Assembly (NCBI GenBank): GCA_050257045.1
Contig: JBLMWD010000126.1
Location: forward strand, 71,258-135,257
From: Bacteroidota bacterium
Lineage (GTDB): Bacteria; Eisenbacteria; RBG-16-71-46; SZUA-252
DNA length: 64,000 nt
Reading direction: 5' to 3'
The position numbers were made by a program, and so were the translations under genes. Below, piece after piece: positions 3,601 through 53,146 of this stretch (its first letter is position 1; each line of letters starts with the position of its first letter). The notes beneath the pieces were generated by a model. It worked only from the letters and a program-made list of their open reading frames with translations, had not been told where the DNA came from and did not search any database.

Positions 3601-3690
3601 ACGCTGAGCTCCTTCCTCGCTCTGGTTGCGGCACAACGGGTTGGGCGGGGCTTGCCTCATCCCGCCCATGGTACCGGTGTGAAAAGGCAA

Positions 3691-5220
3691 CTAGCGTGCC
3701 GCGTTGGCTTTCGCGCCGCGCACGCCGGTGAGAAGGGGTTCGTTGATCGAGGTCTCGAGAATGGGGCCGTACTTCCGCAGCATGGGGCGGATCGCTTTCG
3801 CGTTGCCGACCACGACGATGGTCAAGTCTTCGGCGGAAGGATAGACGCGCTGGATGAGGGGCTTCAGCGCGTCGGGGCGGCTCACCGCCGCGACGTGCGC
3901 GGGGTACTCGGTGACCTCGGTCGGCGGCAGCCCGTAGAACGCGAGGTCGCTCAGCGTCCCCGCGATCTGTCCGTTCGTCTCGAACGAGGTCGGGTACTGC
4001 CCCTCGATGTACTGCGTGGCGGAGTGAAGAGTCGTGGCGTCGAGCCCCGACGCGCGGAAGCGCGCGAGCGTCTCGAGGGCGAGGTCGATCGCTTTCTGCG
4101 TCGACTCGGTCTTCGTGAAGCTGCTGATCGCCACCGTGCCGGGCCGGGTCGGCCGCGGGATGCGCACGCGCGCGCCGTAGGTGAGGCCCGACTTGATCCG
4201 CAGCGCCGTGTTGATCATCGACGTGTACCGGCCGCCGAAGGCCGTGTTCACCACGTCGACGGTGACACGGTCGGGATCGGTCCGCGCGATGCCGAGGTTC
4301 CCGATCCAGAAGTAGGACTGGGTCGCGTCGGGCTTGTCGATGAGGAGCACGTGCCGTCCCGTTCGGCGCGACGTGGGCGGGATCGACGGCGGCTGCGCCG
4401 GGGCCGGCTTCCAGTCCCCGAACGCGCGCCGCAGCTTGTTCTCCATCGCCCGCGCGTCGAAGTCCCCCACGACCGTGAGGATGAGGCGGTCGCCGCCGTA
4501 GTTCTCCCGGTAGCACGCGAGGACGTCGTCGCGCGTGAGCTTCGCCACCGTGGTTTCGTCGCCCGAGGTCGGCCGGCCGTAGGGATGCCCCTGATAGAAG
4601 TAGGCCGCGGCGTAGAGGCCGAGCATCGCGGAGGGATCGTCCTTGTCGGCGCGCAGCGCGTCGACCGTCTGGTCGCGCAGCTTCACGAATTCGGAATCGG
4701 GGAACGTCGGCTCGCGCAGGATCGAGCGCACGAGGTCGATCATGAGGTCCTGGTCGCGCGCCAAGAACTCGCCCGAGATCGCGGCGGTCTCGACGCCGGC
4801 GCCGGTCGAGAGGTCCGCTCCGGCGCCGTCGGTCACGGCCGCGATCTCGCGCGCCGAGCGCTTCCCAGCTCCCTTTCGAAGCATGTCGGCGGTGAGGGAG
4901 GCGAGCCCCTCCTTCCCGGAGGGATCGACGATCGAGCCGCATCCGCGGAGCGTCCCCTGGAAGGAGATGAGGGGGAGGCTGTGCTTTTCCGCGAGGATGA
5001 GCCGCGCCCCGTTCGGGAGCGTGATCGTGTGCGCAGAGGGAATCACGACGCGCGACGGCGCGGCGGCGGACTGTGCGAAACCCGGCGGCGCCAGGAGCGC
5101 CGCCGAGGCGAGAGAGGCCGCGGCGCCGACGAGCGCGGCGGAGGCGAGGCGCAGGATCGAGGCGAAATGCGGGACGAGGACCGCCGGGCCAGATGGGCGA
5201 ATATCCGGCTGGCGGCTCAT
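3691..5220 (-). CDS. M16 family peptidase, non-catalytic subunit
   Basis: TLPNG; GLASLTADML in place of HXXEH; LRIKSGLTY R/Y motif; ATG overlaps upstream stop. Confidence 0.85.
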   Translation of the reverse strand: MSRQPDIRPSGPAVLVPHFASILRLASAALVGAAASLASAALLAPPGFAQSAAAPSRVVIPSAHTITLPNGARLILAEKHSLPLISFQGTLRGCGSIVDPSGKEGLASLTADMLRKGAGKRSAREIAAVTDGAGADLSTGAGVETAAISGEFLARDQDLMIDLVRSILREPTFPDSEFVKLRDQTVDALRADKDDPSAMLGLYAAAYFYQGHPYGRPTSGDETTVAKLTRDDVLACYRENYGGDRLILTVVGDFDARAMENKLRRAFGDWKPAPAQPPSIPPTSRRTGRHVLLIDKPDATQSYFWIGNLGIARTDPDRVTVDVVNTAFGGRYTSMINTALRIKSGLTYGARVRIPRPTRPGTVAISSFTKTESTQKAIDLALETLARFRASGLDATTLHSATQYIEGQYPTSFETNGQIAGTLSDLAFYGLPPTEVTEYPAHVAAVSRPDALKPLIQRVYPSAEDLTIVVVGNAKAIRPMLRKYGPILETSINEPLLTGVRGAKANAAR

Positions 5221-28550: not shown

Positions 28551-29438
28551 GTGAACCGACTGACCGGGGCCCGCTTATCCGTCCTCGCGGCCGCGCTTCT
28601 CTTCTCTGGAGGCGGGGCCGGGATCAAGGCATGCGCCCTGACGAGCTGGCAGGTGGCGAGCTTCCGCTCGGGGATCGCCGCGGTCGCGGTCTGGCTCATG
28701 ATGCCCGAGGCGCGCCGCGGCTTCAGCCGCCCGGTCTGGCTCGTGTCGCTCGCCTACGCCGCCACGGTGCTCCTCTTCGTCCTCGCCAACAAGCTGACCA
28801 CGTCGGCGAACACGATCTTCCTCCAGTCGACGGCGCCGCTCTACATCCTGCTCCTGGCGCCGGCGCTCCTGCGCGAGAAGACGCGTCCGTTCGACATCCT
28901 GGTCGTGGGGCTGCTCGCCGTGGGTCTTTCTTTCTTCTTCATCGGGGCCGAGCCCCCGGTGAAGACGGCGCCGAATCCAGTCGCGGGGAACATCCTTGCC
29001 GCGATCGCCGGCATCACGTGGGCTCTCACGGTCATGGGGCTCCGGTGGATCGGACGGGCCGCAGGATCATCCGGTTCGGTTTCGGCGGTGGTGGTCGCCG
29101 GCAATGCGATCGCGTTCCTCACGGCGCTCCCCTTCGCCCTTCCGGTCGCGGCTGCGCGCCCGCTCGACTGGGCGATCGTGGGTGGGCTCGGAGTGGTGCA
29201 GATCGGGGTGGCCTACGTCTTCCTGACGCGCGCGCTGCAGCACGTCCCGGCGCTCGAAGCCTCGGTGCTCCTTCTCCTCGAGCCGGCGCTGAATCCGCTC
29301 TGGGCGTGGATCGTCCACGGGGAGCGGCCCGGCCCGTGGGAGAACGCGGGCGGGCTGCTCATCCTGGGCACGACCGTGCTCAAGACGTGGCTCGACTCGC
29401 GGGCCGACCGTCCCCGTAGCGAAGCACGAGCACCGTGA
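28551..29438 (+). CDS. EamA/DMT transporter
   Basis: ANKLTTSANTIFLQSTAP, LLEPALNPLW. Confidence 0.88.
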   Translation: MNRLTGARLSVLAAALLFSGGGAGIKACALTSWQVASFRSGIAAVAVWLMMPEARRGFSRPVWLVSLAYAATVLLFVLANKLTTSANTIFLQSTAPLYILLLAPALLREKTRPFDILVVGLLAVGLSFFFIGAEPPVKTAPNPVAGNILAAIAGITWALTVMGLRWIGRAAGSSGSVSAVVVAGNAIAFLTALPFALPVAAARPLDWAIVGGLGVVQIGVAYVFLTRALQHVPALEASVLLLLEPALNPLWAWIVHGERPGPWENAGGLLILGTTVLKTWLDSRADRPRSEARAP

Positions 29439-30603
29439 CGTCGTCAGCCTGCGAATGCCCCGCGACGAAGCCGCGCACCGCTTCGAGCACTCCGTCGAGA
29501 ATCGCGGACGGCGGAGCCGTCCGAACGGCTTCGAGGCACGCGAGCAGCCGCTCCTCGCCGAACTGCTCGCCGGTCGGCGACTCGGCGTCGGTCACGCCGT
29601 CGCTGGTGAGGACGAGGGTGTCCCCGGACAAGAGTCGCGTCTCCTCCTCGTCGTAGGCGGCGAAGTCGAAAGCCCCGGCCATGAGCCCGCCGGCGTCGAG
29701 GCGGGCCAGCGCGCCGTCGGCGCGGAGGAGATACCCCGAGTTGTGCCCGGCGTTGCAGGTGACGAGCCGCCCCTCCCGGTCGAGGCACCCGTAGAAGAGG
29801 GTGACGAATCGCGCCTCGATCGCGCGACGGAGGAGCGCCCGGTTCAGGCGGTCGATCGTCGTGGAAGGGGGCACGCCGGCGCCCACGCTCGACGCGAGGA
29901 TCCCCTGCGCCATCGCGGCAAGGATCGCGGCGGGCGGACCTTTTCCGGCCACGTCGCCCAGCGCGAAGCCGAGCCGCCCCTCCCCCAGCTCGAACGTGTC
30001 GAAGAAGTCCCCACCGATGGTCCGGCAGGGGATCGAGGCACCCACCGCCACGAGACCGTCCCCTTCGTACGCGCGCGGCGGCAGGAGGGCCTGCTGGATC
30101 GCGGCGGCCGTACGGAGCTCCTGCTCCTCGCGCCCGCGGCGCTCCGCATCGGCCACGATCCTCCCGACGTAGCGGCGCTGGATGACGAATGCGTAGGCGG
30201 CCGCGAGGAACCCCGCACCGAGCAACATGGACCAGAGGAGGATCTGGAGGACAACGCGCGCGGAGCGGAGCAGCCCGGGGACGATGGTGAAGTGGAGGAC
30301 GACTGCGGCGAGGAGGCTTCCGAACAGGCTCGTGACGAAGTAGCTCACGACCTCCCGGATGAGAGCCGGGCCCCGGTCGGTCTCCTGGCCGCGGGAGAGG
30401 TGGGGCCGGATCCATCGGGTGTTGGCCTCGATGCACGCGGCGATGATGTAGGAGAAGACGAAGCAGGTGACGAGGTATCCGCCGAGGGCGCCGGGCTTCA
30501 TGCCGGTCTGGAAGTAGAAGAAGAGGGCGAGCGGGAGGGCGATCAGCCCGGGACGCAGAAGGAGCGTCCAGACCACGCTGCTGCGGAAGGATCGCGCCGG
30601 CAT
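29380..30603 (-). CDS. Membrane-bound PP2C/SpoIIE phosphatase
   Basis: Four TM; AAAIQQALLP, GGDFFD, GDVAGKG, NAGH, SDGVTD, DDVT. Confidence 0.9.
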   Translation of the reverse strand: MPARSFRSSVVWTLLLRPGLIALPLALFFYFQTGMKPGALGGYLVTCFVFSYIIAACIEANTRWIRPHLSRGQETDRGPALIREVVSYFVTSLFGSLLAAVVLHFTIVPGLLRSARVVLQILLWSMLLGAGFLAAAYAFVIQRRYVGRIVADAERRGREEQELRTAAAIQQALLPPRAYEGDGLVAVGASIPCRTIGGDFFDTFELGEGRLGFALGDVAGKGPPAAILAAMAQGILASSVGAGVPPSTTIDRLNRALLRRAIEARFVTLFYGCLDREGRLVTCNAGHNSGYLLRADGALARLDAGGLMAGAFDFAAYDEEETRLLSGDTLVLTSDGVTDAESPTGEQFGEERLLACLEAVRTAPPSAILDGVLEAVRGFVAGHSQADDVTVLVLRYGDGRPASRATS

Positions 30604-30614
30604 GGCCGGCGATC

Positions 30615-31970
30615 CTAGCACGGAGCTTCGGCTTCGAGCTCCTTCAGCTTCCGGTAGAGGTTCCGCTCGCTGATGCCGAGAATGCGGGCCGCCTTCTGGC
30701 GGTGCCCGTTGCACTCGCCGAGCACCTGGCGAATGTAGCGCCGCTCCGCGTCGGCCAGCGTCATGCGCGCCGACTGCCCGTTCCCTCCCCGGACCGGTGC
30801 GGCCCGCACCCCGATCGGGAGCTCGGAGGGCTGGAGGACGTCGCCGTCAGCGAGGATGAGCGCGCGCTCGATCACGTTCTGGAGCTCCCGCGCGTTCCCC
30901 GGCCAGTCGTAGCGGATGAGCACGTTCATCGCCTCGGGGCTCACACGGGCCCCGCGCTTGGCGACCACGCCGCTCGAGCGGATGAAGTGCTCGACGAGGA
31001 GCGGGATGTCCTCCCGCCGGTCGCGGAGCGGCGGGATCTGGATCGAGAAGACGTTCAGCCGGTAGTAGAGGTCCTCGCGGAAGGCGCCCGAGCGCATCAT
31101 CGCCTCGAGGTCGCGGTTCGTGGCCGCGATCACGCGCACGTCGACCGACACGTCCGACGTGCCGCCCACGCGGCGGAAGATCCCGGTCTCGAGCACGCGC
31201 AGGAGCTTCACCTGGAGGGCGGGGGTCACCTCCCCGATCTCGTCGAGGAAGAGCGTCCCGCGGTCGGCCACCTCGAAGAGGCCGTGCTTCAGCCGCACCG
31301 CGCCGGTGTAGGCCCCCTTCTCGTGCCCGAAGAGCTCGCTCTGGAGCAGGTTCTCGTGGAGCGAGGCGCAGTCGACGACGACGAACGGCCGCCGCACGCG
31401 CCGGCTGGAGCGATGCACCGCGCGGGCGACGAGCTCCTTGCCGACTCCGCTCTCGCCGCGGATCAGCACCGTCGAGTCGGTGCCCGCCACGCGCGAGATG
31501 AGGCTCATCACTTCCTTGAGCGGCGCCGTCGAGCCGACGATCCGGTCGCTCGGCTTCAGACGGTCCACGTCGCGCTGCAGGGCGAGGTTCTCGCGAGCGA
31601 GCGCCTGAACTTGAAGCCCCTTCTGGAGCACCGCCTCCATCTGACCGAGGGTGCACGGCTTCGCGAGGAAGTCGAACGCCCCCTGTTTCATCGCCCAGAT
31701 CGCCTCCTGCACCGTGCCGAAGGCGGTGAGGACGATCACCTGCGTGGCCGGGAAGGCGCCATGGATCTCGGGGATGAGATCGAGTCCGTTCCCGTCGGGG
31801 AGACGGAGATCGAGGAAAACCACGTCGAAGGCGCGCTCGGCGAGGAGCTCCCGCGCCTGTCCCAGCGTGCCGGCCGTCTCGAGCGAGTAGCCGGCGTGGC
31901 GCAGCTCTTCATGCGCGATCACGCGGAACGACTCTTCGTCGTCGACCAGAAGCACCCGTGGCTCAGCCAT
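30615..31970 (-). CDS. Sigma54-dependent response regulator (NtrC family)
   Basis: REC domain; GESGVGKE; ELFGHEKGAYTGA; WPGN.REL; Fis HTH. Confidence 0.95.
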   Translation of the reverse strand: MAEPRVLLVDDEESFRVIAHEELRHAGYSLETAGTLGQARELLAERAFDVVFLDLRLPDGNGLDLIPEIHGAFPATQVIVLTAFGTVQEAIWAMKQGAFDFLAKPCTLGQMEAVLQKGLQVQALARENLALQRDVDRLKPSDRIVGSTAPLKEVMSLISRVAGTDSTVLIRGESGVGKELVARAVHRSSRRVRRPFVVVDCASLHENLLQSELFGHEKGAYTGAVRLKHGLFEVADRGTLFLDEIGEVTPALQVKLLRVLETGIFRRVGGTSDVSVDVRVIAATNRDLEAMMRSGAFREDLYYRLNVFSIQIPPLRDRREDIPLLVEHFIRSSGVVAKRGARVSPEAMNVLIRYDWPGNARELQNVIERALILADGDVLQPSELPIGVRAAPVRGGNGQSARMTLADAERRYIRQVLGECNGHRQKAARILGISERNLYRKLKELEAEAPC

Positions 31971-32730
31971 CGTTTCCTCCGCGGAAATGGATCGGCAGCT
32001 CGACCGTGAAGCGCGCGCCGTGCGGTTGGAGGTTCTCGGTGCGGATCAGGCCGCCGTGCCGGGTCACGATGCTCTGCGAGATCGAGAGCCCCAGACCCGT
32101 CCCTCGCCCGGGCGGCTTGGTCGTGAAGAAGGGGTCCCAGATGCGGTCCCGGATCGCGTCCGGAACGCCGGGGCCGGTGTCGTCCACCTCGAGGACCACG
32201 GTTGCCTCCGTGAAGCGCGTGCGCGCCGTGAGCACGCCGCCGCGCGGCATCGCCTGGATCGCGTTCATCATGATGTTGAGGCAGACGCTTCGCATCGCGC
32301 CCTCGCCCGCCCAGGTGCAGGGGAGCCCCGGCGCCAGCTCGAGCGCCGAGCGGACGCCCTGCACGGTCATCTGATATCCGAGGAGCGCGACAGTGTCGTC
32401 GACCGCGCGGTTCAGGTTGAACCAGTTCGCCTTCTCGGACTCGGGGCGCGCGAGGAGCATCAGCTTGTCGGCGATGTCCCGCACGCGCCGCGTTTCGCGG
32501 TCGAGGATGTCGAGGAGGCGATCCACGTCGACGGCGCCGCTCTGGGAGGGGTCGTGCAGCCGCCTCCGCAGCGCTTCCACGCCCGCGAGGAGCGAGGCGA
32601 GGGGGTTGTTGATCTCGTGCGCGACGCCCGCGGCGAGGATGCCGAGGGACGCGAGACGCTCACTGTGGCTGAGCTGGCGCTCCAGCTCGCCGCGGTCGCT
32701 CACGACATGGATGGATTCGTCGACTGACAT
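31963..32730 (-). CDS. Histidine kinase without a sensor domain
   Basis: AHEINNPL H-box, NAIQA, DTGPG, PFFTTK, GTGLGL. Confidence 0.9.
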   Translation of the reverse strand: MSVDESIHVVSDRGELERQLSHSERLASLGILAAGVAHEINNPLASLLAGVEALRRRLHDPSQSGAVDVDRLLDILDRETRRVRDIADKLMLLARPESEKANWFNLNRAVDDTVALLGYQMTVQGVRSALELAPGLPCTWAGEGAMRSVCLNIMMNAIQAMPRGGVLTARTRFTEATVVLEVDDTGPGVPDAIRDRIWDPFFTTKPPGRGTGLGLSISQSIVTRHGGLIRTENLQPHGARFTVELPIHFRGGNDG

Positions 32731-32878
32731 GGGCGTCTCCGTTCTCTGACAGATTGGCAGACGGAGGCCCCTCGGCGATACGGTACCTAGGTAGAACTCC
32801 CCAAACCTCTGTCCTCGAAGTGTATTGCGGCCAGAGCGCTCGGACCGCCTCTCCCGGCGCGCGCGACGGGCCGGGAGG

Positions 32879-32894
32879 CGGCACGCTTCGTGCG
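32879..32894 (+). promoter_or_regulatory. Sigma54 -24/-12 promoter for hsp20
   Basis: CGGCACGCTTCGTGCG = GG-N10-GC with GGCAC core. Confidence 0.65.
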
Positions 32895-33003
32895 ATTTCA
32901 GCGCTTACGGTCGAGTCAACGACGCGGCCCGACGGGGGAACGGGGAGCGCACCGCCGCCCGCCTCCGGCGGATCGAGACCGGCGTGCGAGGGGGAAGAAC
33001 GGC

Positions 33004-33438
33004 ATGAAACCGCTCATTTCAGAAAGCGGGATCGCGGCGCTTCGGCGGGAGATGGATCGGATCTTCGATCAGTTCTGGGGAACCGAAACCCAGTCCTCCA
33101 CCTACGGCGTCTGGATCCCCGCGCTCGACATCGCCGACAAGGGCGATGCGCTGGTCGCGAAAGTGGAGCTCCCAGGGGTCGATCCGAAGGAGATCACCGT
33201 CGGCGTCGACGACAATGTGCTCACGCTGAGCGGCGAGAAGAAGTACGAGAAAGAGGAGAAGGACGAACGGCACTATCGCATGGAGCGGTCGATGGGCACG
33301 TTCACACGGAGCATCACGCTTCCGGTGTCCGTCGATGCGACGAACGTCACGGCGCTCTTCAAGAACGGCCTGCTCACGATCCGGCTCCCGAAGACCAAGG
33401 CCGTCAAAGGCGCCGCGATTCCGGTGAAGGTCGAGTGA
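33004..33438 (+). CDS. Hsp20/alpha-crystallin small heat-shock protein
   Basis: WIPALDI, ELPGV, ERSMGTFTRSITLP, FKNGLLTIRLPK. Confidence 0.93.
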   Translation: MKPLISESGIAALRREMDRIFDQFWGTETQSSTYGVWIPALDIADKGDALVAKVELPGVDPKEITVGVDDNVLTLSGEKKYEKEEKDERHYRMERSMGTFTRSITLPVSVDATNVTALFKNGLLTIRLPKTKAVKGAAIPVKVE

Positions 33439-49123: not shown

Positions 49124-50027
49124 GGCTCCGCAGCACGAAACCGACGTTCGCGGGGCGCTCGGCGAGGCGGCGCATGAAGTAGGGCACCCACTCGGTGCCG
49201 TAGGTGACGTAGACGCGCATGCGGTATCCCTCGCGCACCAGCTGATCCTGTAAGTTGCGCCGCACGCCGAGGAGCATCTGCACTTCCCACTCGTCCGGGC
49301 TCCGCCCGTATTCCTTGGCGAGCGCCTTCGCCTCGGCGAGCAGCTTCTCGTCGTGCGTCCCGATCGCCGGGAAGAAGCCGTCCGAGAAGAGGACCCGCAT
49401 GAGCTCGCTGTAGCTCTGGTCCACTTCCCGCTTCGTCACGAAGGCCACGTCGCTCGGCTCGAGGTAGGCGCCCTTCACGAGCCGGATCTTCGGGCGGAGC
49501 GGCTTCAACCGCTCGAGGTCGGCGCGCGTGCGCCGGAGCGCCGACTGGAGCGCGAGCCCCACGTTGTCGTGCTCGCGCCGGACGTACTCGAAGAGCGAGA
49601 CGGTCGCCTCGGTGGTGGCCGAGTGCTCCATGTCGATCTCCACGAAGTTCCCCACCGCGGCCGCGTCGCGCACGAGACGCAGCGTGAGGTCGCGGCACAG
49701 CTCGTAGTCCAGCTCGAGCGCGATCTGGGTCGGCTTGACGGTGATGTAGGCGTCGAGGTGGCGGCGTGAAAGCTGCTGGAGGATCTCGGTGTAGGAGCGA
49801 TAGGACTCGCGGGCCTCGTCGCCGTTCTGCACGTGCTCGCCGAGGTGGTTCAGGATGACCCGGAGCCCGCAGCGGTTCAGCGACTCGGACGTCGCGAGCG
49901 CGTCCTCCAGGGTCTCCCCCGCGATGAAGCGGCGGGCGAATCCGAGGCGCATGCCGGTGCCGCCGACGGTGCGGGTGAACCCACGCTGGGTGGCGAGCCA
50001 GGAGATGACGCTGCGCGTCACCGACAT
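49107..50027 (-). CDS. Monofunctional proline dehydrogenase
   Basis: RFIAGE, IDME, RLVKGAY, THD, YFMRRLAERPAN. Confidence 0.93.
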   Translation of the reverse strand: MSVTRSVISWLATQRGFTRTVGGTGMRLGFARRFIAGETLEDALATSESLNRCGLRVILNHLGEHVQNGDEARESYRSYTEILQQLSRRHLDAYITVKPTQIALELDYELCRDLTLRLVRDAAAVGNFVEIDMEHSATTEATVSLFEYVRREHDNVGLALQSALRRTRADLERLKPLRPKIRLVKGAYLEPSDVAFVTKREVDQSYSELMRVLFSDGFFPAIGTHDEKLLAEAKALAKEYGRSPDEWEVQMLLGVRRNLQDQLVREGYRMRVYVTYGTEWVPYFMRRLAERPANVGFVLRSLMKGR

Positions 50028-50148
50028 GGCGAGTACCGCGATTGGAGGATGGGGCCCAAGGCGGGGCCACTATACCGAAGCCCCATTTCCGTTGGTAGAC
50101 TCCTCCGGTCCGATTTCGCGTCATCCTTTTGGCCCATGGGAGGTCCCC

Positions 50149-51795
50149 GTGCCACGAGCCCCGATGGCTGCCATGTCGCTCGCGATCCTCCTCGCCGCCG
50201 CTCCAGCCGCCGCCCAACACGCCTCCCACGGCGCCGCAGGCGGCGCCGGGACTGTCCCGGTCTTCAACGGGCTGGGGACGGTCCACCATCCGGTCGGGAC
50301 CCGCTCGCAGGCGGCGCAGCGCTTCTTCGACCAGGGGCTCCGCCTCTGCTACGCGTTCAACCACGACGAGGCGATCCGCTCCTTCGGCGAGGCGGCGCGG
50401 CTCGATTCGACGTGCGCCATGGCGTGGTGGGGGATCGCCCTCGCGCACGGCCCGAACATCAATCTCCCCATGAGCCCCGAGGCGGAGCAGCAGGCGCTCG
50501 ACGCCCTCGCCCGCGCGCGGGCCCTCCTTCCGCACGCGACGCCATCGGACCGCGCCTACGTCGAGGCCCTCGCGGCCCGGTACGGCGCTCCCGCGGGGCA
50601 GAACCGGGCGCAGCGCGACAGCGCCTACGCCGACGCGATGCGCGGCGTCATGAAGCGCTTCCCGCAGGACCCCGACGCCGCCGTCCTCTGCGCGGAGGCG
50701 CTGATGGACCTGAGGCCGTGGGATCTCTATGACGCGAACGGGGCGCCCAAGCCGGGAGCCGAGGAGATCGTCTCGATCCTCGAGAAGGCGGTCGCGAATC
50801 ATCCGCAGCACACGGGCGCGCTCCACCTCTACATCCACGCGCTCGAGGCCTCCGCCCACCCCGAGCGCGCCGAGGTGGTTGCCGACCGGCTCGCCAAACT
50901 CGCGCCCGACGCGGGCCACCTGGTCCACATGCCTTCCCACATCTATCTGCGCGTGGGCCGCTACGACGATGCCGCGTCGGTGAACGCCCGCGCGATCCGC
51001 GTCGACCGGGACTACATCCGCCGGTACGACATCCAGACGATGTACCGGATGATGTACTACCCCCACAACATCCACATGCGGTGGTCGGCGCTCTGCTCGG
51101 CGGGCCGGAGCGCGGACGCCGCCGCCGCGGCGCGCGACCTGAACGAGGCCGTGACGTGGGACATGGTCCGCCAGATGCCGCCGATGGAGTTCTTCCGCGC
51201 CGTGGAGTACTACACCCCGGCGCGATTCGGAAAGTGGGACACGATCCTGGCCCTCCCCGCTCCGCCGGCCGACATGGCGGTGACGACCGGGATCTGGCGC
51301 TACACGCGCGGGCTCGCCCTCGCGGCCACGGGCAAGAGCCCGGACGCCGGGGCTGAGCGCGAGAGCCTCGCCGCCGTCACCGCGAGGGTTCCCGCGGACG
51401 CCTTCTTCGGGCTCAATCCAGCGAAGCAGCTCCTCGAGTTCGCCACCGTGCTCCTCGACGGCGAGATCGCCGGGCGCTCGGGAAGGACCGACGACGCCGT
51501 GCGGCTCCTCACGCGCGCCGCGGCACTCCAAGATTCGCTCCGCTACGACGAGCCGCCGCCCTGGTACTCCACGGCGCGCCAGGCGCTCGGCGCGGTCCTC
51601 CTCGGCGCGGGACGGACGCGGGAGGCGGCCGAGGTCTATCGGGAGGACCTGAAGCGCTTCCCCGAGAACGGCTGGTCGCTCTACGGGTTGGCCGAGGCCG
51701 TCAAGGCCTCGGGGGAGGCGAGCGCTCCGGCTCTCCAGCGCTTCAAGAGGGCATGGGAGAAAGCGGACGTGGAGATCAGCGCGTCCCGCTACTGA
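50149..51795 (+). CDS. Secreted TPR protein (HMPSHIY family)
   Basis: AQRFFDQGL..YAFNHDEA, HLYIHALE, HLVHMPSHIY, YDEPP.W, PENGWSL. Confidence 0.88.
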   Translation: MPRAPMAAMSLAILLAAAPAAAQHASHGAAGGAGTVPVFNGLGTVHHPVGTRSQAAQRFFDQGLRLCYAFNHDEAIRSFGEAARLDSTCAMAWWGIALAHGPNINLPMSPEAEQQALDALARARALLPHATPSDRAYVEALAARYGAPAGQNRAQRDSAYADAMRGVMKRFPQDPDAAVLCAEALMDLRPWDLYDANGAPKPGAEEIVSILEKAVANHPQHTGALHLYIHALEASAHPERAEVVADRLAKLAPDAGHLVHMPSHIYLRVGRYDDAASVNARAIRVDRDYIRRYDIQTMYRMMYYPHNIHMRWSALCSAGRSADAAAAARDLNEAVTWDMVRQMPPMEFFRAVEYYTPARFGKWDTILALPAPPADMAVTTGIWRYTRGLALAATGKSPDAGAERESLAAVTARVPADAFFGLNPAKQLLEFATVLLDGEIAGRSGRTDDAVRLLTRAAALQDSLRYDEPPPWYSTARQALGAVLLGAGRTREAAEVYREDLKRFPENGWSLYGLAEAVKASGEASAPALQRFKRAWEKADVEISASRY

Positions 51796-51820
51796 GGCAG
51801 CTCGCACGGTGTTTGTACAC

Positions 51821-52212
51821 CGTGCGGGGCGCGACAGATCGTCATGGAAGGTCTGACATCGTGACATATGAACCGCGGGCTGAAGGCCACGGGGTCGTTC
51901 CTGTGCCACGGTAATCGCCGCTGCCATAAAGAGAAACGCCTACCTTCCGAACTGCCGGTTCGGGCACACCGATTGCTCTAAGCGTTTCTGGCGGCGCGCG
52001 GAGGCAGACAGTTCGCGGGAGAGCCCGGCCCGGCCAATCACCCGGCCGTGAGTTATATCCTGCGATGCGCGTAGTCCAGGGATCTACCGAACTTAGCAAG
52101 CGTCGAATCGAGTGGTCGATGCCTTGCCGGCCGCGTCTGGCGGGCTCGAGACTACTCACTTCGCGTCCATCAGGGTCGAGTACGTCCCGGATACGGTAGC
52201 CTGCCCCGTGCG
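51821..52212 (+). ncRNA. Putative large structured ncRNA, family unassigned
   Basis: No credible ORF; many nested helices with G-U pairs on the + strand; 5' and 3' ends can pair; followed by a strong hairpin. Confidence 0.6.
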
Positions 52213-52229
52213 CCGAGAACGAATAGACG

Positions 52230-52262
52230 AGAACCCGCGGCGTGCAGTCGCCGCGGGTTCTT
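52230..52262 (+). terminator. 13-bp hairpin, terminator-like
   Basis: AGAACCCGCGGCG-tgcagt-CGCCGCGGGTTCT. Confidence 0.7.
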
Positions 52263-52288
52263 GCGCATTCTGGTAGATTCTCCGGCCC

Positions 52289-53146
52289 ATGACCGATCTC
52301 CCGTCCCGGACCTTCGCCCTTCCCGATCTGCGGATCGTGCCCGTCGACTGCCTCGTTCCGCACGAGCGCCACGACGAGCACCGGATGGGTCCGCTCGCCG
52401 CGCGTCTCAAGGGGCAGGGCGTGCTGCGCAACCCGCCCATCGTCGCGCCGCTTCCCGTTTCCGGAGAGGAGCGCTATGTCGTGCTCGACGGCGCGAACCG
52501 GACCGAGGCGGCGCGCGAGATCGGCCTCCCCCACTTCCTCGTGCAGGTGGTCGCGTACGAGGAGCCGGAGGTGCGGCTCCTCACCTGGAATCACGCGCTC
52601 GCGGGCGAGTCGGCCCGTTCGCTCTTCGACCTCCTCTCTGCCATTCCCGGCGTCGGCTGCGCGCGCGAGCCGATCGCCCACGCCCGGGCGCTCCTCGCGC
52701 GCCGGGAGATCCTCGCCTTCGCCGCCTCGCCCGAGTCGGGCGCGATCACGCTCGCGGCGCCGGGCGATTTCGCGGAACGAAACCGCGTGCTGAACCGCAT
52801 CGTCGAGACCTACCGCGAGCGGACGCGCGTCTACCGCGTGGCTCCCGACTCGATCGAGGCCACGCTCGAGCGGATCCCCGAGGCGGTCGCGCTCGTCGTC
52901 TTCCCGCGCTTCGCGCCCGCCGAGGTGATCGAGCTGGCCGCGACCGGCGAGGAGATGCCGGCCGGGATCACGCGCCACCTGGTCTCGTGGCGCGCCCTAC
53001 GGGTCAACCTGTCGATCGATCTCCTCGCCGACACGGAGCGGTCACGCGAAGAGAAGCAGGCCTGGCTGGGGTCGTGGATGCGGGAGCGGGTGGAGGAAGG
53101 GCACGTGCGGTTCTACGAGGAGAGCACGATCCTCTTCGACGAGTAG
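52289..53146 (+). CDS. ParB/Srx-fold protein, SerK/SbnI free-serine-kinase-like
   Basis: LVPHE, NPPIV, YVVLDGANR, C-terminal MPAGITRH. Confidence 0.7.
   Translation: MTDLPSRTFALPDLRIVPVDCLVPHERHDEHRMGPLAARLKGQGVLRNPPIVAPLPVSGEERYVVLDGANRTEAAREIGLPHFLVQVVAYEEPEVRLLTWNHALAGESARSLFDLLSAIPGVGCAREPIAHARALLARREILAFAASPESGAITLAAPGDFAERNRVLNRIVETYRERTRVYRVAPDSIEATLERIPEAVALVVFPRFAPAEVIELAATGEEMPAGITRHLVSWRALRVNLSIDLLADTERSREEKQAWLGSWMRERVEEGHVRFYEESTILFDE

Follow-up and report, generated by a model that had tools for sequence, protein, structure and literature searches.

A probable sigma-54-dependent small RNA gene in an Eisenbacteria family, predicted to be an output of a stress-type two-component system

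What is encoded in the long spacer between a TPR gene and a SerK/SbnI-like gene in a genome of the Eisenbacteria (assembly GCA_050257045.1) is the question addressed here. The window, by which we mean the whole stretch of 64,000 nucleotides (nt) of contig JBLMWD010000126.1 that was analysed, contains a gap extending from the stop codon of the TPR gene (51795) to the ATG of the SerK/SbnI-like gene (52289), both genes being on the + strand, and this gap has a GC content of 61-64%, relative to 70-75% in its flanks and approximately 70% in the assembly. An earlier note, made from the letters of the window, had read the gap as an undescribed structured RNA of about 400 nt, possibly a ribozyme or a switching leader. 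A structured non-coding RNA on the + strand, two of the proposed helices and the absence of an earlier description were upheld by our analysis; the size, the 5' half, the other helices, the ribozyme and the leader were not. The locus is probably a separate gene for a sigma-54-dependent structured small RNA of about 245-280 nt, transcribed from the + strand as an output of a stress-type two-component system. The coordinates of all features are collected in Table 1.

From the sequence, approximately 160 nt at 51830-51987 are read as promoter DNA and not as RNA, and it is this 5' portion, with its palindrome and its putative sigma-54 promoter, that had been counted into the RNA of about 400 nt. 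Sigma-54 promoters follow the consensus TGGCACG-N4-TTGCW, with GG at -24, GC at -12 and ten letters between them, and their activator site, as a rule a palindrome, is located some 80-150 nt further upstream. An element of this type (GG-N10-GC) is present in all 17 homologues of the locus described below; in 16 of these a palindrome, the putative site of an NtrC-type activator, is found 109-113 nt ahead of the -24 GG (approximately 110 nt in this window), and the 17th carries a one-letter variant at the same position. The -24/-12 pattern had two matches in the window against 0.24 expected, and the strict sigma-54 consensus was found six times in the genome against none for a reversed control. 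The genome also encodes rpoN (Sigma54_DBD, 218.9 bits) and, on the basis of 24 matches to Sigma54_activat with 20 of them above 170 bits, about 20 AAA+ activators. A sigma-70 scan of 51700-52400, in which a -35 box was required, returned no promoters. The other match to the -24/-12 pattern in the window is located on the - strand at 3687-3700 (GGCACGCTAGTTGC).

Conservation within the gap was found to be block-wise. Among the four genomes carrying the closest copies (subfamily A), pairwise identity was 91% over the end of the TPR gene, 84% over the 40-nt palindrome block (51830-51870), 53% over the approximately 90 nt of spacer that follow it, 79% over 18 nt around 51963-51976, 87% over the core, 84% over the linker and terminal hairpin and 88% over the start of the SerK/SbnI-like gene; because the spacer shows what unconstrained DNA looks like at the same divergence, the conserved blocks are considered to be under selection. 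Between the palindrome block and the core, the invariant letters of a six-sequence alignment were GGCA and TTGC, ten apart. Transcription is predicted to start at about 51988, which is 12 nt past the C of the -12 element and two letters before the conserved core (51990), so that four helices drawn in the earlier note (51821-31/52202-12, 51830-40/51850-63, 51888-94/51899-905 and 51919-39/51982-96) would lie wholly or partly in promoter DNA upstream of the transcript. A perfect hairpin just past the TPR stop codon, which had been proposed as a competitor of the first of these helices, is specific to this genome and lies outside the RNA: it has no counterpart in the three closest relatives in the alignment of the four subfamily-A genomes, and no U run follows it on either strand.

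The structured element is single-copy in its own genome. BLAST searches of 61 related genomes retrieved it from four, including this one, all of which have the gene order TPR gene, element, SerK/SbnI-like gene (subfamily A), and these four gave 230-262 bits with an RNA model, R1, built on 51990-52217. Diverged copies (subfamily B) are present at the same place in two genomes of the same genus (g1), G007 and G008, behind a divergent PolX-like HHH gene. R1 matched the first of these at the syntenic position with 18.5 bits, and a weak match to the same genome was all that nhmmer retrieved in addition when started from the four-sequence alignment. A second model, R2, built from subfamily B, matched G020 of genus g3 with 19.5 bits at a site having the same upstream signals and motifs, and BLAST from G020 revealed copies with 73-80% identity in seven of the eight g3 genomes (subfamily C). 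A third, R3, built from the seven C copies, matched G008 (17.2 bits; E 0.04 in the genome scan and 0.0007 over the set of loci), G062 of genus g2 (32 bits) and G021 of genus g4 (20 bits), and BLAST from the latter two retrieved subfamily D. A total of 17 of the 41 genomes of one Eisenbacteria family thus carry the RNA, these being six of ten in g1, seven of eight in g3, three of ten in g4 and one of 13 in g2.

R1, a model that is weak for distant copies, did not reveal a copy in a further 110 genomes of the class. Over the 151 genomes of the class, R1 returned only genus g1 and one match at chance level; with filters off and E up to 10 it gave 415 rows, most of them meaningless. A pattern scan of genome contigs recovered two of the four known subfamily-A genomes and no others, and one of metagenome contigs, anchored on the internal-loop motif, recovered a single contig near-identical to G001. 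Weak R2 or R3 matches at L076, L077, L078, L095, L096, L097 and L099 were rejected, as they were without the palindrome, the promoter and the loop motif.

The region was found to fold better than chance. For the whole gap, which contains two perfect hairpins that fold equally well on both strands, the folding energy gave z = -4.86 (+ strand) and -3.86 (- strand). For the body at 51988-52231, from which those hairpins are excluded, it gave z = -3.35 on the + strand, equalled by 1 of 200 shuffles, and -1.08 on the - strand, equalled by 33 of 200. The predicted fold consists of closing helix P1, hairpin P2 and P3, a hairpin that is long and irregular, and after these come a single-stranded linker and a GC-rich terminal hairpin; in subfamily A the alignment fold agrees with the single-sequence fold. 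The inner GGCAG/CUGCC of P1 is common to all subfamilies, and the internal-loop motif of P3 reads GAACYUAGC in most homologues and GGACCUAGC or GUACCUAGC in some members of C and D. AACUCA is found in the linker in five of the six A and B sequences. The base of P2 corresponds to a helix of the earlier note (52013-20/52058-65), and its closing hairpin likewise stands, being conserved with compensatory changes (GC:3 AU:1; AU:3 GC:1); the genomes of subfamily B have, by eye and not by scan, a hairpin at the equivalent position that is followed by T runs.

Because the four sequences of subfamily A differ too little for most pairs to be tested, P3 was compared between A and B in a manual helix table of six sequences, in which offsets from two fixed motifs were used because the middle part of MAFFT alignments across the subfamilies was inconsistent with the structure. 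Of its 176 cells, 169 were in standard pairs, 33 of them G-U, in agreement with the original call of a + strand RNA. Three of the seven pairs of helix h4 were changed on both sides between A and B (C-G to U-A, G-C to C-G and C-G to G-U), one pair of h3 varied as U-A, U-G and C-G, and one pair of h5 was U-A/C-G within A and C-G/U-A within B. The comparative model places 52100-06 with 52160-66, 52110-17 with 52150-57 and 52070-78 with 52189-98, and so gives other partners to three helices drawn at first (51997-52003/52159-65, 52096-106/52116-27 and 52071-76/52150-55); the strands of a suggested pseudoknot reminiscent of P3/P7 (52150-57/52178-86) also have other, covarying partners.

In subfamilies C and D, P2 is absent and an extra 5' hairpin, with seven of eight pairs changed on both sides, is followed by a single-stranded stretch with letters resembling a ribosome-binding site (GGAGGGA in C, AGGAGGUG in D). 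In a model-made alignment of the 11 C and D sequences, 41 of 66 pairs were changed on both sides, and in the helix equivalent to P1 the count was six of ten. The cells of this alignment were paired in 89.0% of cases, relative to 74.3% in column shuffles (none of 500 reached 89.0%) and 36-43% when the partner was slid by 1-3 columns, and the covariation score was 0.419, compared with 0.174 after shuffling and 0.07-0.10 after sliding. The weakest element was helix 6 of R3, which competes with a CCU:AGG pairing (h3) that is possible in all subfamilies.

The gap had been described as having no credible open reading frame, and no frame was found to stay open across all six close homologues. In the core, 51 columns were variable and were distributed over the codon phases as 14/20/17, with no period of three, and gaps were present in eight of 233 core columns, several of them one-nt indels. 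On the minus strand, frames of 131-151 amino acids are open in some copies, none of which is kept across copies. Two small open reading frames behind the stretch resembling a ribosome-binding site were rejected, one in D, which has the UAG of the loop motif as its stop and is kept in two of the four sequences, and one in C whose frame is broken by indels and which is kept in no C sequence.

Searches with Rfam 15 at gathering thresholds returned no match over the whole window, and at E up to 10 over 51700-52400 gave four weak matches, all to the terminal hairpin (the best being His_leader, 22.5 bits against 49). As no ribozyme or intron family was matched at E up to 10, the suggestion of a ribozyme was not sustained. 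The reported lack of transfer-messenger RNA (tmRNA), RNase P and SRP signatures was borne out: ARAGORN found no tRNA or tmRNA in 51000-53000, and RNase P RNA (299 bits) and SRP RNA (73 bits) are encoded on other contigs. ARAGORN did not find a tmRNA in the genome as assembled (G000; 138 contigs, 98.8% complete) either, where RF00023 gave only tRNA-sized matches under cut-off; the tmRNA gene may be unassembled or unusual.

The RNA is also represented in RNA libraries. Part of the stretch was listed for 23 public runs, six of which are on record as RNA, and four metatranscriptomes from four studies, with soil or sediment as their source, were compared over 51300-52800. Each of the four yielded a contig lying on the core (Table 1). 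Outside 52005-52232 only short pieces were found, which were mostly less than 90% alike, presumably derive from other organisms and were not counted as evidence. The X17 and X14 contigs end at 52231/52232, the foot of the terminal hairpin, which may hint, weakly at most, at a fragment that ends there. X14 extends beyond 52232 by 21 letters that we take to be the start of an Illumina adapter, and this type of adapter would, we presume, fit a + strand RNA if the library were of the dUTP type. Together with the empty Rfam search and the covariation in relatives, these contigs agree with the original view of an undescribed non-coding RNA, as does the literature: in the available portions of publications on non-coding or small RNAs and sigma factors of Eisenbacteria, no regulatory RNA of the phylum was found.

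A candidate regulator is encoded in the same window, 19 kb from the RNA. In G062 the RNA precedes a further copy of the palindrome, a small histidine kinase gene and the gene of an NtrC-type activator with receiver, sigma-54 interaction, AAA lid and Fis-type helix-turn-helix (HTH) domains. The window harbours a kinase-activator pair in the same order, also with a copy of the palindrome upstream, and its activator is 78% identical to that of G062, the next paralogue being 46% identical. Orthologues of this activator (E at most 1e-140) were identified in 18 of the 41 genomes. Both RNA and activator were found in 16 genomes, the RNA only in one (G004, 63% complete), the activator only in two (G011 and G035) and neither in 22, an association with a Fisher value of 2e-8 that is overstated because kin are not independent; the pattern is patchy within three genera. 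In eight genomes the RNA and the activator are located on one contig, 1-23 kb apart. A SpoIIE/PP2C-type phosphatase gene (29380-30714, - strand) is part of the same compact module (29380-33438) as the kinase and activator genes.

The palindrome and promoter are not confined to the RNA gene. In the window, an Hsp20 gene divergent from the kinase operon is preceded by both and probably belongs to the same regulon as the RNA. A second locus of G021 (L104, G021:C1:1049690-1049891) has the same palindrome, a spacing of 112 nt, the promoter and similar first leader letters, and runs directly into a gene with three BON domains that is followed by a cupin gene. It is because the same palindrome and promoter precede Hsp20 and BON-domain genes that the RNA is read as an output of a stress-type sigma-54 regulon. 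Across the genome, ten palindromes are followed, at a distance of 60-200 nt, by a -24/-12-like element, where our own estimate from 25 palindrome and 140 promoter-like matches would lead one to expect approximately 0.07. Behind the eight further pairs are genes for a nucleotidyl transferase, an FG-GAP protein, an 87-amino-acid open reading frame, a glutamate dehydrogenase, a multicopper oxidase, a 68-amino-acid open reading frame, a secreted-looking protein of 252 amino acids and a thiamine pyrophosphate (TPP) enzyme; no theme common to the candidate regulon genes was found beyond Hsp20 and BON. These eight pairs may constitute one regulon, or may serve several activators with similar sites.

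As we read the locus, sigma-54 RNA polymerase would transcribe the RNA from about 51988 to about 52231-52265, an NtrC-type activator bound to the palindrome would switch the promoter on, and the most likely activator is the response regulator paired with the histidine kinase of the window. The transcript would fold into P1, P2 and P3 with its GAACYUAGC loop, end at the GC-rich hairpin and act in trans. This reading draws on the conservation of the element, the covariation in its relatives, the promoter architecture, the co-occurrence with the activator and the presence in RNA libraries, and from these we infer the exact ends, the dependence on sigma-54 and the activator and the action in trans. 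Given such an RNA, the chances that it works by protein binding and not by base pairing of the Hfq type appear about equal; our lean is towards protein binding, because the whole fold is conserved, as opposed to a short seed, and because no Hfq gene was found in the genome.

Several points weigh against this reading. The pairing of the activator with the palindrome is drawn from adjacency in one genome and from co-occurrence, and with about 20 other activators in the genome some of the ten palindrome-promoter pairs may serve other regulators. In G021, where an Hsp20 gene with a ribosome-binding site begins approximately 45 nt beyond the RNA and no terminator is obvious, the RNA may function as a 5' leader, either instead or in addition. 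Subfamily A is linked to C and D weakly, through low scores by way of B and through common motifs and architecture: it was not recovered in the genome scans with R2 and R3, nor by R3 over the loci at E up to 0.05. The pairing table for A and B is supportive and not decisive because its register was chosen by hand, and the C and D alignment was fitted to the model and so favours the structure, even if the margin is large. Contigs from RNA libraries carry no information on strand, ends or level, and DNA can occur in such libraries. The start near 51988 is placed from the promoter alone. A strict terminator scan of 51700-52400 returned no sites, the tail of the terminal hairpin having too few T/U, and since the RNA contigs end before this hairpin, the 3' end could come from processing instead of termination.

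The proposed arrangement can be compared, by analogy, with GlmY of E. coli (QseE/QseF, also GlrK/GlrR), CrcZ of Pseudomonas (CbrA/CbrB) and the Qrr RNAs of Vibrio (LuxO). The glmY gene adjoins the genes of its two-component system, as the RNA does in G062. GlmY is included in Rfam, and the empty Rfam search reflects the lack of any match in sequence or structure between it and the Eisenbacteria RNA; GlmY also differs in being a decoy for the protein RapZ, no such partner being known for the Eisenbacteria RNA, and in that its promoter overlaps a sigma-70 promoter, whereas none was seen in the scan of 51700-52400. The Qrr RNAs are about 100 nt long, Hfq-dependent, base-pairing and present in several copies; the Eisenbacteria RNA is two to three times longer, single-copy and conserved as a whole fold. 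The likeness to GlmY is that of a small RNA with a sigma-54 promoter in need of an NtrC-type response regulator, in that case QseF (PMC7073468). The likeness to Qrr is the dependence on sigma-54 and a dedicated activator, LuxO (bioRxiv 10.1101/2021.07.01.450815). CrcZ is, like the Eisenbacteria RNA, structured and several hundred nt long; the crcZ promoter is RpoN-dependent and bound by CbrB, a phosphorylated activator, and CrcZ, at 407 nt, sequesters Hfq (PMC4063720). It has six A-rich Hfq-binding motifs. The Eisenbacteria RNA is without such repeats, and the two sequences are unrelated; in neither sequence nor fold does the Eisenbacteria RNA resemble any of the three.

The description best supported is that of a new RNA family within a known kind of regulatory arrangement, in a phylum without an earlier described case. 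A phylum far from the proteobacteria would thereby join the few cases in which a small RNA is the output of a sigma-54 two-component system. To our knowledge, Candidatus Eisenbacteria has no cultured member, and a testable module is here put forward from sequence alone, consisting of the kinase, the activator, the palindrome, the sigma-54 promoter, the RNA and the co-regulated Hsp20 and BON genes. The family can be entered into RNA libraries, which would end its annotation as empty spacer, and because the RNA was assembled at high depth from soil RNA libraries it might serve, in soil metatranscriptomes, to indicate how active or stressed Eisenbacteria are. It is conceivable, although on balance doubtful, that the family is the first of a class of stress RNAs in soil bacteria that are abundant and structured throughout, made on demand by a sigma-54 two-component system along with Hsp20 and BON proteins and acting as a ribonucleoprotein, in which the GAACYUAGC loop may hold or scaffold a form of the polymerase, a chaperone or a ribosome factor instead of base pairing. 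If true, this would be a new functional type of RNA, as 6S or CrcZ once were.

Table 1. Features of the predicted small RNA gene, its candidate regulator and regulon, and its surroundings; positions are those of the window unless a genome, contig or locus is named.
Feature	Position	Strand	Basis or remark
Small RNA body	~51988-52231	+	Start predicted from promoter; RNA-library contigs over 52005-52232
Upstream activating palindrome CTGNCA-N3-TGNCAG, here CTGACATCGTGACAT	51853-51867	.	Putative NtrC-type activator site
Predicted sigma-54 promoter, -24 GGCAC / -12 TTGC (GG-N10-GC), GGCACACCGATTGC	51963-51976	+	
Closing helix P1, 5' strand	51992-52007	+	Pairs with 52201-52215
Closing helix P1, 3' strand	52201-52215	+	Minimum free energy and alignment folds
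Hairpin P2	52013-52065	+	Subfamilies A and B only; base kept, tip variable among relatives
Long irregular hairpin P3	52066-52198	+	Comparative model
Conserved internal-loop motif ACCGAACUUAGC	52086-52097	+	In P3
Single-stranded linker, 12 nt	52216-52227	+	Unpaired in folds
GC-rich terminal hairpin, 15 pairs (52228-42/52249-63)	52228-52263	+	Presumed terminator; U tract weak here
RNA-library contig X14	52005-52232		249 nt; depth 491.8; no differences
RNA-library contig X16	52039-52205		167 nt; depth 17.7; no differences
RNA-library contig X17	52035-52231		197 nt; depth 2.7; 4 differences
RNA-library contig X19	52016-52178		162 nt; depth 9.7; 1 difference and 1 gap
NtrC-type sigma-54 activator (receiver, AAA+, Fis-type HTH)	30615-31970	-	Pfam; candidate regulator of the RNA
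Small histidine kinase (HisKA, HATPase_c)	31963-32730	-	First gene of operon with activator; order as in G062
Second copy of palindrome, CTGACAGATTGGCAG	32746-32760	.	Exact match; 16 nt upstream of histidine kinase ATG
Sigma-54 -24/-12-like element	32880-32893	+	134 nt from palindrome; upstream of Hsp20 gene
Hsp20 small heat-shock gene	33004-33438	+	Pfam HSP20, 3.6e-22; divergent from kinase operon
Eight further palindrome/-24/-12-like pairs	G000 C17, C26, C33, C40, C51, C65, C102, C114 (L110-L116, L070)		91-166 nt apart
TPR gene	49855-51795	+	Pfam
Perfect hairpin, 12 pairs, just past TPR stop	51801-51828	+	This genome only; outside RNA
Extended -10 box of SerK/SbnI-like gene, TGGTAGATT	52271-52279	+	9 nt ahead of ATG
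SerK/SbnI-like gene, 285 amino acids	52289-53146	+	Neighbour, outside RNA unit
PolX-like genes	L013 82-1020; L012 2819-3784; L079 518-1504; L080 428-1372; L084 1907-2785; L093 1884-2786		

Among the other explanations, the one that survives best, at a low probability, is that the RNA is, or descends from, the 5' leader of a small heat-shock gene, a thermosensing or stabilising untranslated region transcribed from a sigma-54 promoter together with hsp20, which in this genome was parted from hsp20 and kept as, or turned into, a free RNA. The G021 arrangement described above would fit such a leader, the BON-domain locus of the same genome shares the palindrome, promoter and 5' letters, and the Hsp20 gene of the window shares the palindrome and the type of promoter. 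Nevertheless, the promoter of that Hsp20 gene is only about 110 nt before its ATG and is followed by no rod structure, and the RNA itself is 19 kb from hsp20 and has its own terminal hairpin. Moreover, the next gene is convergent or unrelated in all seven g3 genomes with the RNA, and only one of the 17 homologues has the hsp20 arrangement.

Marginally less probable is a 6S-like RNA, in which a rod-shaped fold with a bubble at its centre would bind the RNA polymerase holoenzyme, present as a specialised second copy. Like 6S RNA (RF00013), the RNA appears abundant, stable and largely double-stranded with a conserved internal loop; the copies in C and D fold as a single irregular rod of some length, whose large internal loop is conserved, and the contig depth of 492 would fit an abundant stable RNA. 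When five loci that include relatives were searched with Rfam, the only match on the RNA itself was one to 6S in the G021 copy, which at 21.7 bits (E 0.78) is far under the gathering threshold of 46.4. The copy in the window, however, gave no 6S match at E up to 10 and is branched (P2 and P3) and not a single rod, a good 6S RNA (76.3 bits) is already encoded on another contig (C124), and the distribution of the family is patchy, 24 of the 41 related genomes being without it. A second weak 6S-like match in the genome, at G000:C100:16829-16932, scored 23.9 bits and is under cut-off.

We regard it as improbable to a slightly greater degree that the RNA acts as a sponge, holding CsrA or some other small protein that binds RNA by means of repeated short motifs in the RNA. 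The genome contains a CsrA gene, with no Hfq found, and in C and D the single-stranded stretch after the 5' hairpin is rich in GGA (GGAGGGA and AGGAGGUG). That 5' stretch is missing from the RNA of the window, in which four GGA were counted by eye in 244 nt, about what composition would lead one to expect, and none is in a hairpin loop; what the subfamilies all have in common is not repeats but helices and the GAACYUAGC loop.

The reading suggested by position, namely a cis-acting leader, riboswitch or attenuator of the SerK/SbnI-like gene in which transcription would begin upstream, the fold would respond to a ligand and the terminal hairpin would gate read-through, is very unlikely and has already been largely refuted by phylogenetic distribution. 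The name of this gene is valid as a distant likeness, its product being matched only remotely in NCBIfam, by SbnI at 55 bits against a cut-off of 350 and by SerK at 49 bits against one of 380, and by no family in Pfam. The RNA does lie directly upstream of it on the same strand in all six RNA-bearing g1 genomes, with two different upstream neighbours, and a hairpin with a weak U tract could permit read-through. However, the gene seems to have a promoter of its own: a -10-like box (TAGAGT, TACACT, TAGGCT, TACCCT and similar), often preceded by TG, was found 7-10 nt before most of its ATGs that were inspected in g1, g2 and g4 (loci L014-L034), whether the RNA is present or not, and was not seen in G006, G009, L015 and L025. 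Because the -10 box is so close to the ATG and no ribosome-binding site precedes the ATG, in this window or with the box in the three genera, the messenger RNA looks leaderless or nearly so, and for want of that site a read-through transcript would be poorly translated.

The distribution of the two also differs. The SerK/SbnI-like protein was found in 30 of the order's 41 genomes, which all belong to one family, in g2 and g4 without the RNA at that position; in g3 it was found in none of the eight genomes, seven of which carry the RNA, and the linkage is kept only in the six RNA-bearing g1 genomes. Subfamily D instead precedes Hsp20, a histidine kinase or convergent genes, and no riboswitch family was matched. 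As the gene has its own promoter and was not found in RNA-rich g3, a leader or riboswitch is unlikely, the switching leader of the earlier note is contradicted, and the RNA has nothing demonstrable to do with the neighbouring kinase gene. Two g1 genomes have the gene without the RNA: in G006 (L010 1440-1510) and G009 (L009), both the RNA gene and the -10-like promoter are missing, and the TPR gene ends approximately 40 nt before a GTG start with a GGAGAAG-like ribosome-binding site, which looks like a deletion that fused the kinase gene to the TPR transcription unit.

Finally, it is scarcely credible that the locus is no functional RNA at all (a gene in decay, what is left of a mobile element or a fold that arose by chance in GC-rich spacer), a reading that is already refuted as far as sequence analysis goes, given that minus-strand frames open in some copies and the ready folding of GC-rich DNA (z below -3.8 on both strands of the whole gap) are set against the lack of any kept frame or period of three, the one-nt indels, a single-copy element with block-wise conservation (core 87% versus spacer 53%), covariation in relatives and RNA-library contigs lying exactly on the core.

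The genes that surround the predicted small RNA gene vary. In the window, a convergent amidohydrolase gene is next after the SerK/SbnI-like gene. Downstream of the RNA are the SerK/SbnI-like gene in g1, convergent genes of unknown function in g3, the histidine kinase in G062, Hsp20 in G021 and a convergent methyltransferase gene in G033. The most constant neighbour, present in three genera, is the divergent upstream PolX-like gene (HHH_8, HHH_5 and polymerase lambda fingers domains), which was identified in G007, G008, G020, G032, G026 and G062.

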